64,000 bases of DNA. It comes from a virus. Positions 3,007 through 46,234 of the stretch are shown here, in pieces. Both the position numbers and the translations under genes were made by a program. Every line of letters starts with the position of its first letter. Position 1 is the first letter of the stretch. Location: the IMG/VR virus record IMGVR_UViG_3300012164_000002, positions 13,745 to 77,744 of that record; one strand, 5' to 3'. Under the pieces are notes generated by a model. It did not search any database. It was not told the origin of the DNA and worked only from the letters and a program-made list of their open reading frames with translations.

Positions 3007-3635
3007 GGCGCTTCAATCTAGTTGTACTTTTGGCGTTCGCGTGTGGCTGTAGTGGCGAGGGCTTCACCACCGCTGGCCTGGCGGCCCTCGATGCGGCCGA
3101 TTCGGCGCCCGGCACCGGCGGCGTAGCAGCGACCGGCGGAGCCTCGGGAACGGGCGGCGCGTCGACTGGCGGCAAGGTTTCAACCGGGGGCGCTCCGGAG
3201 GCCGACGCCGGCGACAGCGCTCCACCGTCGTCTGGCGGACAGCCGGGTACCGGCGGCTCGCCTCAAACTGGAGGCGCACCTACTACCGGTGGAGCTCCAG
3301 CGACGGGTGGCGCTCCGAACACCGGCGGCGCGCAGAGCACTGGGGGCGCTGCCGTCGACGCTTGCGCGCTCGTCACGCACGACAACGGCCTCGGGGCGAT
3401 GTGGGAAGACTGCGTGCCGCTTGGCACCTACAGCCTCGAGCAAGCGATGAAGGCATGCAAGGCGTCCGGCGCCGCTTCGTGCACGAAGTCTATGGGATGC
3501 GGCGGCGACAACGAGACGGTGTACGGGCTCACGCTTGGCTCGCTCTTCGCGCACTGGGGCTACGGAAGCGTCAACGCTGGTTACGTCAACGACACGAGCG
3601 TTTGCCCGCACGACGGCGATCCGCGCTGGAACTAG
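3003..3635 (+). CDS. lipoprotein with TGGAP low-complexity linker and Cys-rich C-terminal domain
   Basis: Signal peptide/lipobox LLAFACGC; TGGA(P/S) repeats; 6-Cys C-terminal domain. Confidence 0.7.
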   Translation: MRRFNLVVLLAFACGCSGEGFTTAGLAALDAADSAPGTGGVAATGGASGTGGASTGGKVSTGGAPEADAGDSAPPSSGGQPGTGGSPQTGGAPTTGGAPATGGAPNTGGAQSTGGAAVDACALVTHDNGLGAMWEDCVPLGTYSLEQAMKACKASGAASCTKSMGCGGDNETVYGLTLGSLFAHWGYGSVNAGYVNDTSVCPHDGDPRWN

Positions 3636-40923: not shown

Positions 40924-41187
40924 TTACTTCCAGTTCGACGCCCAAGGCGCCGGCGATTCGACGGTGACTTTCCGGACGTGGTGCAGGCACGGCGCGCAGA
41001 GGATCGACGCGGCGAGCTGCTCTCGCGTTTCGAGATCGACCACTTGAGTGAGAACAGCCGAAGGGCGACCGCACGCCGAGCACGGCTCCTCTCTGAGTCG
41101 CCTGAAACGTCCGAGCACCCACGCGAACGAGAACACGAACTCGACGACGAGTCCGAGGAAGATCCCAAGTACGAGCGGCCCGATCAT
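40924..41187 (-). CDS. membrane protein with Zn finger
   Basis: N-terminal TM, CSAC..CAPC. Confidence 0.5.
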   Translation of the reverse strand: MIGPLVLGIFLGLVVEFVFSFAWVLGRFRRLREEPCSACGRPSAVLTQVVDLETREQLAASILCAPCLHHVRKVTVESPAPWASNWK

Positions 41188-43001
41188 CCGACTAGATCCT
41201 GTGCGAGGCGCATCTCGCTCCGGCCTTCGCCGTCGATTAGGTCGAGCCCTCGAAGACGACTGAGGTACGTGATGAACGTGCCCGTCTTGGCGCTCAGGTT
41301 CGACCGCTCGGCGAGCTCGACGCGGGACAACGCGTTGGGGAACGCTTCTTTCAACGCAACCATCATACGCCCGGCCCCGCTGTCCCGGCCAACCTCGTGG
41401 AGCCAGTAGTTGAAAAGGGCGTCGCCGGCGGGCAGCGGCTCGTAGTGCCCGAGCGCCGTGACACCGGCGTCGGTGATCCGGATCATCGCCGTCGCCCCAC
41501 GCTCTCCGCCCTCGATCCATCCCGCTGTGCGCCCGCGACTCAAGTACGTGATGAACGTACCGGTTCTCGGCGAGAGACCGGCGCGGATCGCGAGGGTGCG
41601 ACGCGAGAGCCCCTCGGAGCTTTGCGCGAGCGCGATCATCATGCGGCAGAGACCGCTCTCGCCGATGCTGGGGTCTCTCGACGCCCCGTTCGACGCGCCG
41701 TTCGGCTTGAACGCCCTCTTCGGGGGCGCCGGAGAGGGCGCCGGCGGGGGTGTCTTCTCGGCTTGCGCCGCTCGCAGATCTTGCCCGTGGAGCACTTCTT
41801 CGTCGACGAGCACGTTGCTCGCTAGCCTCTCTATCTCATCGAATCCGCGTTTCAGCTCCGAGGCCATTCGCCGTTGCATGCGCTTCCAGTTTACCGGCAC
41901 CACCGCTTTCTTGGGTACGACGGCCGCCGCCACCGCTCGCCCTTTGCGATCCGCGTCCAACATGGCGATGCCGAGCTTCTTCTCGAGCTCGACGATGCGC
42001 TTGTCGCGATCCGAGAGGAGCTTCTTGATCTCCTTCGGGTCCTCGGCTTTGGCGCGCTCGATGGTCTCGGCCATCCGAGCTCGGATCTTCTCCAAGTTCG
42101 GCTTTGCGCCTGGGCCTCGAGCCGTCCGCATCTTCTTGCCTGGCTTCGGCGTGTCCGACGAGTCGAACGTGCGGCGCATCCGAATGGGCACGACGCCTTC
42201 GAACTCGAGCCAGCCCGGCGACACGATGAGCGCGCTTCCCTTTGGTAGCTTTCGCACCTGGTCGGAGAGATCCTTGAGCCGCTCTTTCTCGACGTGATCG
42301 CCGAGCCAGTCCATGACGGCCGCGCGCGACTTAGGCCCCACGGTGCGGAATGCGACCATGGCGTCCGCGAGCTCGGCGACGTCCTTGTTGATGCGCGCGC
42401 TCCGCTGGGTGAGAACGCACACACCAACGCCGACGTTTCTGCCCTCCTCGACGAGCTGTTGCCACGCCGACACGCAGAGCGCGAGATCGGGACTCCCCGC
42501 GGGGACGATCTGCGGGATGTACCGCGCGCCCTCGTCGAGGAACTGCATGAGCGGCTCTCGCCGACGCCCGCGAATGATCTCGCCTTGGCGCTCGAAGAGC
42601 CGGCGCGCGTAGGCCGTCGCGAATCGAATGCGCTCGCCGACAGACCACATCTTACCGGTCGACGTGCGACTGAAGTCGACGAGCACGTTGCACGACTCCT
42701 CGACGACTGTATCGGCGACGGCGAGCCCGCTGTCGGGATAGATCGGAATGTCGCCGTGGATTCCGCCGAGGATGAGGCACTTCACGCCGGGGCCTTTGCC
42801 GTCCGCCGAGTGCGTGATCCCCCACGAGACGCCGAGTGGATCGAGCCACGACCAGCGGTAGCTCACCTTGTCGAGCTCTTCGGCGACGACGGCGCCGAAC
42901 ACCGTCTTGCCCATCCCCTTGCCCCCGTACACGATCAGAGTCGATGTCACCGTGTCAGGCGGCAGCGCCAGCACGTTGGAGATCACGAGCCGCTTCTTCA
43001 C
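41184..43001 (-). CDS. HerA/FtsK-like (DUF87-type) ATPase with tandem C-terminal winged helices
   Basis: Walker A YGGKGMGKT, Walker B FLDEG, EEGR..G..TQRSA, two GTFITYLSR wHTH repeats. Confidence 0.85.
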   Translation of the reverse strand: MKKRLVISNVLALPPDTVTSTLIVYGGKGMGKTVFGAVVAEELDKVSYRWSWLDPLGVSWGITHSADGKGPGVKCLILGGIHGDIPIYPDSGLAVADTVVEESCNVLVDFSRTSTGKMWSVGERIRFATAYARRLFERQGEIIRGRRREPLMQFLDEGARYIPQIVPAGSPDLALCVSAWQQLVEEGRNVGVGVCVLTQRSARINKDVAELADAMVAFRTVGPKSRAAVMDWLGDHVEKERLKDLSDQVRKLPKGSALIVSPGWLEFEGVVPIRMRRTFDSSDTPKPGKKMRTARGPGAKPNLEKIRARMAETIERAKAEDPKEIKKLLSDRDKRIVELEKKLGIAMLDADRKGRAVAAAVVPKKAVVPVNWKRMQRRMASELKRGFDEIERLASNVLVDEEVLHGQDLRAAQAEKTPPPAPSPAPPKRAFKPNGASNGASRDPSIGESGLCRMMIALAQSSEGLSRRTLAIRAGLSPRTGTFITYLSRGRTAGWIEGGERGATAMIRITDAGVTALGHYEPLPAGDALFNYWLHEVGRDSGAGRMMVALKEAFPNALSRVELAERSNLSAKTGTFITYLSRLRGLDLIDGEGRSEMRLAQDLVG

Positions 43002-43210
43002 GACGCCCCCTTGCGTGCGTTGTCGGCCGTCACGCAGTCGCGGAAGTATTGGATGACGGCGTCGGCCGTGTTCGTTTGATCGAACCGTTCGCAGTACGGC
43101 ATCGTGTGGAAGAACGTCGGTCGGTCGTTCTCCCTCGGCGCCTTGAACGTCACCATGCCTTTGCAGGCGCAGCAACGGATCGTCACGTTCTCGGGCAGCG
43201 GCTTTTTCAT
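42998..43210 (-). CDS. small Cys/His protein
   Basis: CCAC..HTMPYC; coupled. Confidence 0.5.
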   Translation of the reverse strand: MKKPLPENVTIRCCACKGMVTFKAPRENDRPTFFHTMPYCERFDQTNTADAVIQYFRDCVTADNARKGAS

Positions 43211-43392
43211 GGGACCTTCTTCCAGGTGACGTACACATTGCGGTCATCGAAGGTGACGTCGCACACCGGGAGCTCTTTTTTCAGTACACGCCAGAGACGC
43301 TTCGGGCTTGGCTTGGCGTTCTCGATGGTGACCTTCGGATGCGTCGCGAGCGCGATGCGGATTACAGCCGTGAGATCGGAGAGCGTTCTCAC
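43207..43392 (-). CDS. hypothetical protein
   Basis: GTG overlaps the recombinase stop. Confidence 0.45.
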   Translation of the reverse strand: MRTLSDLTAVIRIALATHPKVTIENAKPSPKRLWRVLKKELPVCDVTFDDRNVYVTWKKVP

Positions 43393-44543
43393 GCGATCAC
43401 CCTCGTCGTTCGACGCTTCGCGAAGAGCTCCTCGGTCGCCCGCTTGTCGTAGTTCGCGGTCGTCTCCACCGACTCGTGCGCCATGAGCACTTGCACCTGC
43501 CGGATGTCGAACCCTTGATCGAGTAGGCGCGTCGCGAACGTGCGCCGGAAGTCGTGGGGCCCCGTGACGACGTCGATGCACTTGCATCCGCTTTTGCACT
43601 TGCCGTCGCCCCCGAAGGCGTCGTGCGCGGCCTCTCGCACGAGAGACCAAAAGCTCCACGACGACAGCACGCAGTCGGGCCGATTCGGCGAGCAGAAGAG
43701 CCCCCCGTGCGTCGCGCCGATCCGAGCTCGCTCCTCGAGCCAGGAGTCGATGGCGGCTTGCATCTGCGCATCGATCGGCATCTGCTTTTCCTTGTTGCCC
43801 TTGCCGACGACGGTGAGGGTCCCGGGGGAGAGGCCCTCGACGGCGAGCCGGGCGATCTCCTCGCGCCGGAGCCCCGCGCCGATGGCGAGCACGATCGCCG
43901 TGTCGAGCATCGCCCCCCGGTAGCCGTCGAACCCCCTGGCCGCCTCTCTGAGCGTTCGCTCCTCGGGGGCCGTCAAGGCGCGTCCGCGGGGCTGCCGGGC
44001 GCCAGGGACGCTCTTCAGAGCGCCGGAATGAACGAGCTCGTGCTGGTCGGCCGTGACGAGCTTCAGGGCGTACATCGTGCGGATCAAACCCCGTAGGTGA
44101 GACAGCGTAAGGTTTGCAGTGCCGGGCGTAATCTCTCCGCGGCGCGTGGCCTCGTAGAGCGCCGTCCGGATCGTCGTCACCTGCTCGTAGCCGAAGGCCG
44201 GCCAGGGGATCTGCGTGGGGTTCGCGTCGTCATCCCTCAAAACGATGCGGGAAAGCCGCCTGAGAGCGTCCAAGGCGTTCTGCCGGCTCCTCGGCGAGAG
44301 CTGCGACCGGAGGTACGCCGCGACGGCCCTGGCGCCTTCTGCGAAGGGGTCCCGCACTGTGGGGGCGGCGGATTGGACGTGTGTGGTCCCCGGAGGCACC
44401 ACGACGACCACGGCGGCCGTGGGAGCCGTGGGAGCCGGCGGCTCGGTTCCACTGGAACTGGTAGGCGTTGATGCGGAATTGCCGTTTTGCGCGTCCGACG
44501 GCGTCGCATCGGAGTTGCTAACCTTATCTTCATTATCCGCCAC
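43389..44543 (-). CDS. tyrosine recombinase/integrase (XerC-like)
   Basis: GAGLRREE (R), GKGNK (K), PHDFRRTF (HxxR), MAHES..TT..Y; start position uncertain. Confidence 0.92.
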   Translation of the reverse strand: MADNEDKVSNSDATPSDAQNGNSASTPTSSSGTEPPAPTAPTAAVVVVVPPGTTHVQSAAPTVRDPFAEGARAVAAYLRSQLSPRSRQNALDALRRLSRIVLRDDDANPTQIPWPAFGYEQVTTIRTALYEATRRGEITPGTANLTLSHLRGLIRTMYALKLVTADQHELVHSGALKSVPGARQPRGRALTAPEERTLREAARGFDGYRGAMLDTAIVLAIGAGLRREEIARLAVEGLSPGTLTVVGKGNKEKQMPIDAQMQAAIDSWLEERARIGATHGGLFCSPNRPDCVLSSWSFWSLVREAAHDAFGGDGKCKSGCKCIDVVTGPHDFRRTFATRLLDQGFDIRQVQVLMAHESVETTANYDKRATEELFAKRRTTRVIA

Positions 44544-44572
44544 TTCCTAATCTTACATGGATAAGGTTGGCA
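44516..44572. promoter_or_regulatory. paired 11-6-11 dif-like recombinase sites (attP/res candidate)
   Basis: Minus-strand GTGGCGGATAA-TGAAGA-TAAGGTTAGCA and plus-strand TCCTAATCTTA-CATGGA-TAAGGTTGGCA. Confidence 0.6.
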
Positions 44573-44758
44573 GATTCAAGCCGCTCCGACGGCCGTTTTG
44601 CGCCCACGAACGCGCGAGCGGCCCGCACGCTCCATTGCACGCACCCCCGGGGTTTCGGAAGGGGTTTCCGTCGGCGTGCAGGAGGCGTGCAGGCGGCCTT
44701 TTGACGGGCACGTGGTGAGCACTGGGGCCGGAGGGGGTCGAGGGTGTACCCTTCCACC

Positions 44759-46234
44759 ATGCCCAACCAGGTCGTTCTCGAGTGGGAAGTCGACGTTTCC
44801 AAGAGCACTTTCGGTCCGACAGAGGCGCAAGCCGCGCTCGCCGCGGTCGATCTCTATTCAGACCCCGTCACCGACCCTGTGCTCGGGCAGTTCTTCGGAC
44901 TCGTCGTCGCCGACGACGATACCGTCACGACTCCGACGGGCGCGGCTCGCACGCTCACGCTCAACATGACGCCCGCCGCTGGTCAAGCGCCGCCGCCGTT
45001 TCCGTGTCACCCACGAACGGCAACGCCGCCGGGCCTTCCGTACCCGCTTCTCAAAACGGTATCACTCGCCGGATCGTTCTTCGTCACGAACGGGCTTCTC
45101 ACGGTGCCGACTACGGCGACGCAAGTGCCCGCGCTCAATATCGGCGATCAGATCCAGTTCCTCTCGCAGCAAGGTGTCTTCTACCAAGTCGCGGGAGTGA
45201 CCGCGACCCAGGTGAATCTCACGGCGGCGTACACGGGCACGAGCACGAACACGCGAGCGTTCAAGGAAGTCTCCGATCCCGCCACGAAGGTCGCGGTGTA
45301 CTCGACGTCGGAGGATGACACCAACGGCGTCGCTACGGAGCCGGCAATCGCCGCCGGCTCCGGCGCGCGCACGGTGACGCTCTTCTACTTCGACTCCACC
45401 GGCGCGGGCCCGTTCAACGTGACGGTGTCGCTCACCGGGAAGCGCCCAGCAGAGTTCACGCTCGATCCCGCGAGCGTCGACGTCGACATCGTCGCGAATC
45501 TCATCGTCGCGACGGTTGGCGGGTTCGGTAACAGTGTAGGGCAGCTCACGCTCGTCGGTCTCTCGAGCGACGTCCCCGCAGTTCCCGCCGGCACGCCTCT
45601 CGGATCCGGCGCGGGCGCCATCGAAGGATCGGCGCCAGCGATCAACCTCGACAACACGTACCGCGATCTCACCGATCAGGCGCAAGCGCTCATCAATCGC
45701 TCGCTCGTCTACCTGCCGCCGTCGTACTTCGCGCTCGCCGCTCAGGGGGCCACGCTGCCCCAGCTCGAGGGCGACTTCCTCGTAACGACGGGCTCGACGA
45801 ACGTGCCGACAGTCGAGGATCAGACGGGCGTGCTCGCTGCCGGTAACACCCTCCGCTTCGCGTCGCAGTTCGGCACGCTCTACACCGTCGCCGCCGTCAC
45901 TGCGAAGGTCGTGACGCTCACGGAGGTCTATTCCGGATTGGATCGCCGCCGGTACAACGACGAGCTCCGGAAGATCGAAGGCGCCGCCGTCATCAATCAA
46001 CTGACGGGCGCCTACCGGATCTCGCCGTCGATGGCCGCGCAGCCGTCGAACGCTGCGCTCAGCGCGCCGCTCGGACAGTTCTCCGAACCGCAAGTTGCCG
46101 GGCCGCCGCCGAACCCGCCGCTCTCGCCGGCGACGGTTCCGACGCCCACGTTCCTCTCCGATCTCTTCACGCAAACGATTCAACTCAAGTTGAAGGGCGT
46201 GAAAGTCACTCCGGCGACCATCGGGTTCCTCTAA
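44759..46234 (+). CDS. beta-rich virion/spike-like protein with internal duplication
   Basis: Two copies of G.F.VT.G...VPT...Q...L..G....F.SQ.G..Y.V..VT....L...Y.G. Confidence 0.6.
   Translation: MPNQVVLEWEVDVSKSTFGPTEAQAALAAVDLYSDPVTDPVLGQFFGLVVADDDTVTTPTGAARTLTLNMTPAAGQAPPPFPCHPRTATPPGLPYPLLKTVSLAGSFFVTNGLLTVPTTATQVPALNIGDQIQFLSQQGVFYQVAGVTATQVNLTAAYTGTSTNTRAFKEVSDPATKVAVYSTSEDDTNGVATEPAIAAGSGARTVTLFYFDSTGAGPFNVTVSLTGKRPAEFTLDPASVDVDIVANLIVATVGGFGNSVGQLTLVGLSSDVPAVPAGTPLGSGAGAIEGSAPAINLDNTYRDLTDQAQALINRSLVYLPPSYFALAAQGATLPQLEGDFLVTTGSTNVPTVEDQTGVLAAGNTLRFASQFGTLYTVAAVTAKVVTLTEVYSGLDRRRYNDELRKIEGAAVINQLTGAYRISPSMAAQPSNAALSAPLGQFSEPQVAGPPPNPPLSPATVPTPTFLSDLFTQTIQLKLKGVKVTPATIGFL

Follow-up and report, generated by a model that had tools for sequence, protein, structure and literature searches.

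A conserved 28-bp inverted repeat in front of a viral Xer-like recombinase gene probably serves both as a target of the enzyme and as a promoter element

The core sites of tyrosine recombinases consist of two inverted arms of 9-13 bp on either side of an asymmetric spacer of 6-8 bp, and non-palindromic spacers of the 6-bp type recall those of the lox, FRT and dif sites. In the Cre/loxP system of phage P1 a two-domain phage recombinase is combined with a site near its gene which has inverted arms of 13 bp and an asymmetric spacer of 8 bp, while the bacterial dif site, the substrate of the host-encoded XerCD pair, is 28 bp long, is laid out as 11-6-11 and has the centre ATAA-N6-TTAT. In the XerS/difSL system of streptococci and lactococci and the XerH/difH system of Helicobacter and Campylobacter, one recombinase gene, encoding a single Xer-like enzyme of ~350 aa, forms a module with its own imperfect inverted-repeat site beside it (PMC5357621). 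The TnpI/IRS systems of the transposons Tn4430 and Tn5401 have an inverted core pair and extra motif copies beside the recombinase gene (PMC2847244), and promoters of KplE1-type integrase genes are overlapped by recombination sites, with autorepression (PMC2951348). In the phage Mx8, the attP is located in the 3' part of int and alters the C-terminus of the protein (PMC6070905).

The locus compared here to these systems belongs to an uncultured soil virus and was studied in a window of 64,000 nucleotides, corresponding to positions 13745-77744 of an 85,617-bp IMG/VR virus record (coordinates are those of the window unless another sequence is named). The record carries a 124-bp direct terminal repeat, has a CheckV completeness of 100% and a GC content of ~64%, and encodes no tRNA. 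Its gene content includes a split family-A DNA polymerase, a VapE-type primase and several helicases, as well as ThyX, a dCMP deaminase, a dNMP kinase, methyltransferases and a tail-lysozyme-like protein; searches of the virus genome for ParA (CbiA family), ParB, an HTH_3 repressor and sigma-70 region 4 found none of these. The structural half of a relative (G001, 96,019 bp; L274-L278) is collinear with the window genome. This relative is classed as 'linear', yet it has a 226-bp direct end repeat, the map position of which differs from that of the ends of the window genome. As the end repeats lie at different map positions in the two relatives, the assemblies behave as circles or permuted molecules. 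The cumulative GC skew shows a broad plateau at 45-55 kb of the genome and mostly tracks gene direction; the element described below is located at 58.3 kb.

The gene of interest encodes an Xer-like tyrosine recombinase of 384 aa (43389-44543, minus strand), with a GTG start codon at 44543; the database gene call begins 62 residues after this GTG. The protein matches PF00589 (3.9e-21) and possesses the catalytic R-K-H-R-H/W-Y set and the two-domain fold of tyrosine recombinases, as R226, H330, R333, H356 and Y365 are invariant and K248 nearly so in its family (35 homologues). Residues 1-62 are disordered and are followed by a core-binding domain (66-171) and a catalytic domain (192-384). Among solved structures, the best sequence matches are XerA, XerD and XerH, while a fold search matched Xer, Cre, integron and lambda Int core structures equally well and did not separate them. 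The structure model and its fold matches predict a two-domain enzyme of the Xer/Cre type without an arm-binding domain, and the identity in structural alignments with Cre chains is only ~15-17%. Homologues are found in more than 120 metagenomic clusters, many of them on contigs of 80-100 kb. The catalytic domain also carries a family-specific insertion (residues 307-322, ~43578-43625 in the window), in which H307, C316, C320 and C322 are nearly invariant; a zinc site at these residues is possible and would be unusual among tyrosine recombinases.

Two abutting sites, here called site 1 and site 2, had been proposed at the start of this gene in a first-pass annotation of the window. Site 2 (44545-44572, no strand assigned) is a conserved element with an 11-6-11 layout, and the quasi-symmetry previously ascribed to its arms is confirmed, since the element is an inverted repeat. 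On the recombinase-sense strand its left arm extends from 44572 to 44562, its 6-bp spacer from 44561 to 44556 and its right arm from 44555 to 44545, where it stops one base short of the GTG. A 28-bp element with the same layout is found directly 5' of the recombinase gene in all of the 28 distinct loci compared, the recombinases of which are 37-76% identical; the row for locus L050 in the site tables, like the statement below that the corresponding MAG has no second site, is based on the unpublished genome G005. Read on the gene strand, the left arm of the family element ends with CCAACCTTA and is followed by the 6-bp spacer and by a right arm which starts with TAAGATT. Across the 28 loci the pairwise identity is 0.80 at the 18 inner arm positions as against 0.31 at the four central spacer positions, and 25 distinct spacers are present, always of 6 bp and in no case palindromic.

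The two arms also vary together. Watson-Crick complementarity between the arms is seen in 210 of 308 cells compared to 190 +/- 4 after reshuffling of the right arms between loci, and none of 10,000 shuffles reached 210, although the kinship of the loci inflates this test. In locus L027 compensating changes have occurred in both arms at three positions, and in L261 the pairing at arm position 5 has been restored. The outer right arm is weakly conserved across relatives; the symmetry and covariation extend to arm positions 9-11, which gives a footprint of 28 bp. The element is present as a single copy in each of three near-complete genomes, and the full site is kept despite a different neighbourhood in locus L018, where a ribbon-helix-helix gene replaces the usual left neighbour. 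Site 2 hence has the layout of a core site of the lox/dif/FRT type, with inverted arms, an asymmetric spacer and conservation together with the enzyme. A scan of a viral collection for related loci, using the recombinase only as query, found no relative, and two pattern scans of that collection returned one known relative and otherwise chance matches on AT-rich contigs without a recombinase.

The position of the element relative to the gene suggests a possible second function. The inner half of the right arm contains a putative -10 hexamer, TAAGAT (44550-44555, minus strand), and a putative -35 box, TTGAAT (44574-44579, minus strand), is located upstream of it, so that the region in front of the gene reads TTGAAT (44579-44574), 18 nt, TAAGAT (44555-44550), 6 nt and GTG. 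This layout would fit the promoter of a leaderless mRNA. The TAAGAT hexamer is nearly invariant in the family, with a start codon 5-8 nt beyond it in 24 of the 28 loci, and in most relatives a T(T/G)GAC-like box is found 17-18 nt upstream of the hexamer. A consensus scanner made no promoter call for the recombinase gene because only 8 of the 12 positions match the sigma-70-type consensus, and the promoter is therefore deduced from conservation. The left arm is invariant within the -35/-10 spacer, and a plain promoter would thus leave it unexplained.

A second gene, of 491 aa, is transcribed divergently (44747-46234, plus strand, ATG at 44759) and has its own promoter of the leaderless type, with a hexamer at 44747-44752 which is located 6 nt before the ATG and is conserved in relatives. 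In 22 loci (~19 distinct after removal of duplicates) a homologue of this gene is located on the upstream side of the recombinase gene. A TA-N3-T hexamer, often preceded by GGTG, occurs 5-8 nt before start codons lacking a Shine-Dalgarno sequence at 44747-44761 in the window and at positions 3081, 19494, 50268 and 51498 of the genome. At least four other virus genes share such a leaderless-like start, which suggests a wide use of leaderless mRNAs by the host. Between the two divergent promoters there is an array of phased 11-bp repeats (44651-44697, no strand assigned), composed of 4-6 units that end with AGCC or a related word, the position of which is conserved across the family. TRF detects a period of 11 at 44673-44697, and the aligned array has conserved C columns 11 nt apart and a lag-11 autocorrelation of z = 10.6 in 27 loci. 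The array could serve for accessory or regulatory binding. Locus L027 has a different repeat word, AACACC, and also deviates in its arms.

Judged from these comparisons, site 2 is probably the DNA target of the recombinase as well as a part of its promoter. It is a real and conserved element, which is most likely the core site of the enzyme fused to the promoter of its gene. The more specific reading preferred here, to which we assign a probability of roughly 45%, is that site 2 is the recombinase's own lox/dif-like core, that two copies of it are recombined in order to resolve or circularise genomes, and that binding to it also represses the enzyme's own promoter. From the observed conservation, symmetry, covariation, single copy number, gene linkage and fixed distance to the start codon, together with the absence of integrated copies, we infer each of the component steps, i.e. 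that the recombinase binds site 2, that recombination takes place there, that the site contains a promoter with a leaderless start and that it reacts with another copy of itself. One recombinase monomer would bind each 11-bp arm, and strands would be exchanged across the asymmetric 6-bp spacer. Where a genome dimer or concatemer contains two such sites as direct repeats, an exchange between them would yield monomer circles, while circularisation of the genome would be an alternative use of the same self-reaction. The right arm would carry the -10 hexamer, the left arm would fill the spacer between the -35 and -10 boxes and the transcript would start at or near the start codon. As the arms cover both the -10 hexamer and the -35/-10 spacer, a bound recombinase should shut off its own gene. 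In this virus, a third arm (described below) spans about +15 to +27, counted from the first start-codon base, and could act as an extra roadblock.

Compared to the described systems, the window module comes close to XerS/difSL and XerH/difH in that the site adjoins the gene of a single recombinase, at a distance of 1 nt from the start codon, with one site per genome examined. These two systems are, however, chromosomal, whereas the window module is viral, has unrelated arms and has a site which overlaps the putative promoter of the gene; the difSL spacer of 11 bp also differs from the 6 bp of site 2. The likeness to Cre/loxP includes the type of enzyme, the fold of which matches Cre, the inverted arms and the asymmetric spacer near the gene, and the roles proposed here, circularisation and dimer resolution, are the same. 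Site 2 differs from loxP in its arms of 11 bp and spacer of 6 bp, and partition genes and plasmid-prophage features were not found in the window virus. An extra arm copy beside the recombinase gene is shared with TnpI/IRS, but the third copy here is not conserved in the family, and the window element is a virus while TnpI/IRS reside in transposons. In KplE1 the overlap with the promoter involves the arm-type and directionality-factor sites of an integrated prophage, whereas here the core itself would overlap the promoter. The overlap of site and promoter, being shared, predicts negative autoregulation. No integrated state has been seen for the window virus.

The choice of recombination partner depends on the contrast between arms and spacer. 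A second copy of the viral site itself is the most probable partner, as the spacer varies without restraint whereas the arms are conserved. The main competing explanation is that site 2 is an attP, through which the virus integrates at a host site that resembles it in the arms and is identical in the spacer, in which case the -35 and -10 boxes would be split and the expression of the prophage recombinase altered. The first-pass annotation had left the choice between an attP and a resolution site open, and such a function agrees with the conserved, palindromic, co-varying, single-copy and gene-linked site 2 but not with the unconserved site 1. A position beside the integrase gene is usual for an attP, and the phased 11-bp repeats beside the core resemble arrays bound by directionality factors. 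Simple Xer-like integrases that do integrate exist. An overlap between attL and the integrase promoter, with autorepression, is moreover widespread (PMC2951348).

However, an attP spacer would need to match that of a host attB, and it is the spacer that is the least conserved part of the element (25 variants in 28 loci), which favours a self-reaction of the lox/dif kind. No integrated copy was found in ~70 contigs or in 185,579 genomes representing prokaryote species, and 43 contigs with two identical recombinases all show a viral context. The only close relative among the species genomes is located on a 5.4-kb contig of the unpublished MAG G005, again in a viral context, and the next-best recombinase match is 34% identical. 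A second site was not found in this MAG, and in 401 sampled Actinomycetota genomes the arm pattern was no commoner than a reversed control; four of these genomes match it, in all cases in lower-GC contigs without a recombinase, as expected of chance matches. Neither an integrated context nor an attB-like site above chance was thus found in these genomes or in the MAG of the relative. The predicted lack of an arm-binding domain also speaks against an attP with arm-type sites, as residues 1-62 are disordered and the two small downstream ORFs match no family, and no repressor family was found in the virus genome. Integrated copies in unsampled hosts could have been missed. Altogether we regard an attP as a serious but unlikely alternative; if correct, it would help to identify hosts. 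The Mx8 precedent invoked earlier is a weak parallel, the attP of that phage being in the 3' part of int and the site described here in a promoter.

Three further types of site were considered and rejected. An inversion switch is contradicted by the single site per genome and by the 31-bp inter-arm segment, which is too short; a telomere site of the protelomerase type by spacers that are never palindromic; and a tRNA-derived core by the lack of a tRNA and of any Rfam match.

It is doubtful, on present comparisons, that site 2 is no more than a promoter plus the operator of a different dimeric regulator, in which case the recombinase would act elsewhere or on host DNA. Such a function would account for the -35 and -10 boxes and for their constant spacing from the start codon, and hexamers placed 5-8 nt ahead of the start codon are also found at other genes of the virus. 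A palindrome within a promoter is a classic form of operator, and a dedicated repressor could equally well bind to site 2. A footprint of 28 bp is, however, longer than usual for a helix-turn-helix dimer, while it is typical of the sites of tyrosine recombinases. The motif occurs only once per genome and stays linked to the recombinase gene in all cases, including that with different neighbours, and another candidate target for the enzyme was not seen.

Site 1 (44543-44516, minus strand), situated within the first nine codons of the recombinase gene, is of a different nature. It consists of a third arm copy (44516-44528, no strand assigned) and the adjoining segment 44529-44543. The third arm covers codons 6-10 and repeats, in inverted orientation, the left arm together with two bases of the spacer, 44516-44528 and 44560-44572 forming an inverted repeat with 12 of 13 positions matched. 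The letters, coordinates and match counts reported previously for site 1 proved correct on recheck: it matches E. coli dif in 8/11, 4/6 and 6/11 positions (18/28), and is the only 28-mer in the 85.6-kb genome with at least 17 matches. Shuffles of the local AT-rich 71-mer reached 18 matches in 12 of 5000 trials. Site 1 and the third arm are nevertheless specific to this virus, the relatives carrying the codons of M-S-D-D-V-G-K at this place. Of the overlap with the start of the gene claimed for both sites, that of site 1 stands, while site 2 is confined to the upstream side. Conservation upstream of homologous recombinases, the lack of which would have refuted the sites according to the first-pass annotation, was found for site 2 but not for site 1.

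A bacterial dif, i.e. a substrate of XerCD, is not supported for either site. Site 2 shares the 11-6-11 layout and the length of 28 bp with dif but has the conserved centre CTTA-N6-TAAG, and the likeness to E. coli dif is restricted to site 1, the XerD-side arm of which is poor (6/11) and unconserved. The description of the region as two abutting dif-like sites is accordingly unsupported. A mimic of dif at site 1, exploited through the host XerCD as in elements of the IMEX type, would explain why no other sequence of the genome matches E. coli dif as well and why shuffles rarely do, but is very improbable considering the poor XerD-side arm, the location within the first codons of a gene, its absence from all relatives and the fact that the virus has a recombinase of its own.

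Four occurrences of the arm pattern are present in the window as against 0.02 expected, and no further full copy exists in the whole genome. The count of four given before is thus upheld, but the meaning of two of the copies is not, as the third arm is missing in relatives and the fourth copy (44108-44118, plus strand) coincides with the codons of the invariant peptide T-A-N-L-T. Its Ala and Leu codons are unconstrained at synonymous positions among 30 homologues, and an intragenic site at 44108-44118 was rejected on these grounds.

The 13-bp arms around 31 bp at 44516-44572, a combination confined to this virus, could fold into a DNA hairpin or cruciform (-8 kcal/mol, z = -2.6, plus strand). 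A hairpin in RNA or DNA, instead of a protein-binding site, is hardly credible for site 2 itself: G-T pairs on the plus strand of the window are found in 39 of 98 mismatched arm cells, mainly at positions 5 and 8, but the site is only as stable as shuffled sequence (z = 0.15 and 0.26), Rfam matches and T-runs are absent, no transcript is expected over it, and at two positions an A residue makes the hexamer more -10-like.

In the relatives, the segment corresponding to site 1 is of interest in its own right. Codons 2-7 of their recombinase genes (e.g. 4001-4025 in L003, the counterpart of 44516-44543 in the window) belong to a conserved N-terminal M-S-D-D-V-G-K, which is followed by a disordered and variable linker. 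The codons GAT and GTA in this stretch are kept at synonymous positions, though rare in a GC-rich setting, which suggests a constraint at the DNA or RNA level, perhaps on leaderless translation. They do not represent a phased accessory site, because their distance to the core site varies.

If the recombinase does act on site 2, the family would contain natural lox-like pairs of enzyme and site with many spacer variants and at least two variants of arm specificity, and such pairs would be raw material for orthogonal genome-engineering tools. A virus lineage which looks lytic and has its own replication machinery would then carry a self-repressing system for dimer resolution or circularisation, and would offer a testable case of a recombination core within a leaderless promoter. 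A much bolder extension, which we consider improbable, is that this large family of uncultured soil viruses keeps its circular genomes monomeric by an Xer/dif-like system of its own, made up of a self-repressing recombinase and a 28-bp site and maybe driven by a viral ATPase of the FtsK/HerA type. Two genes downstream of the recombinase, a P-loop protein of 687 aa is encoded (41184-43247, minus strand), which has weak HerA-type matches (E = 0.002-0.2) and two winged-helix-like repeats at its C-terminus. This protein may be a packaging or translocating ATPase; it is 34% identical to a protein encoded near the recombinase gene in L261 and is adjacent in only some relatives.

Relatives of the recombinase also exist outside viruses. 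Some 2,200 large plasmids, mostly conjugative and enterobacterial, encode tyrosine recombinases which are 31-35% identical to the window protein over nearly the full length (e.g. NZ_KY623659.1, 107679-108509). At the two plasmid-borne homologues of this group examined, a comparable upstream inverted repeat was absent. In protein sequence, these plasmid recombinases are closer to the window recombinase than those of any deposited phage, the identity of the latter being 31% or less.
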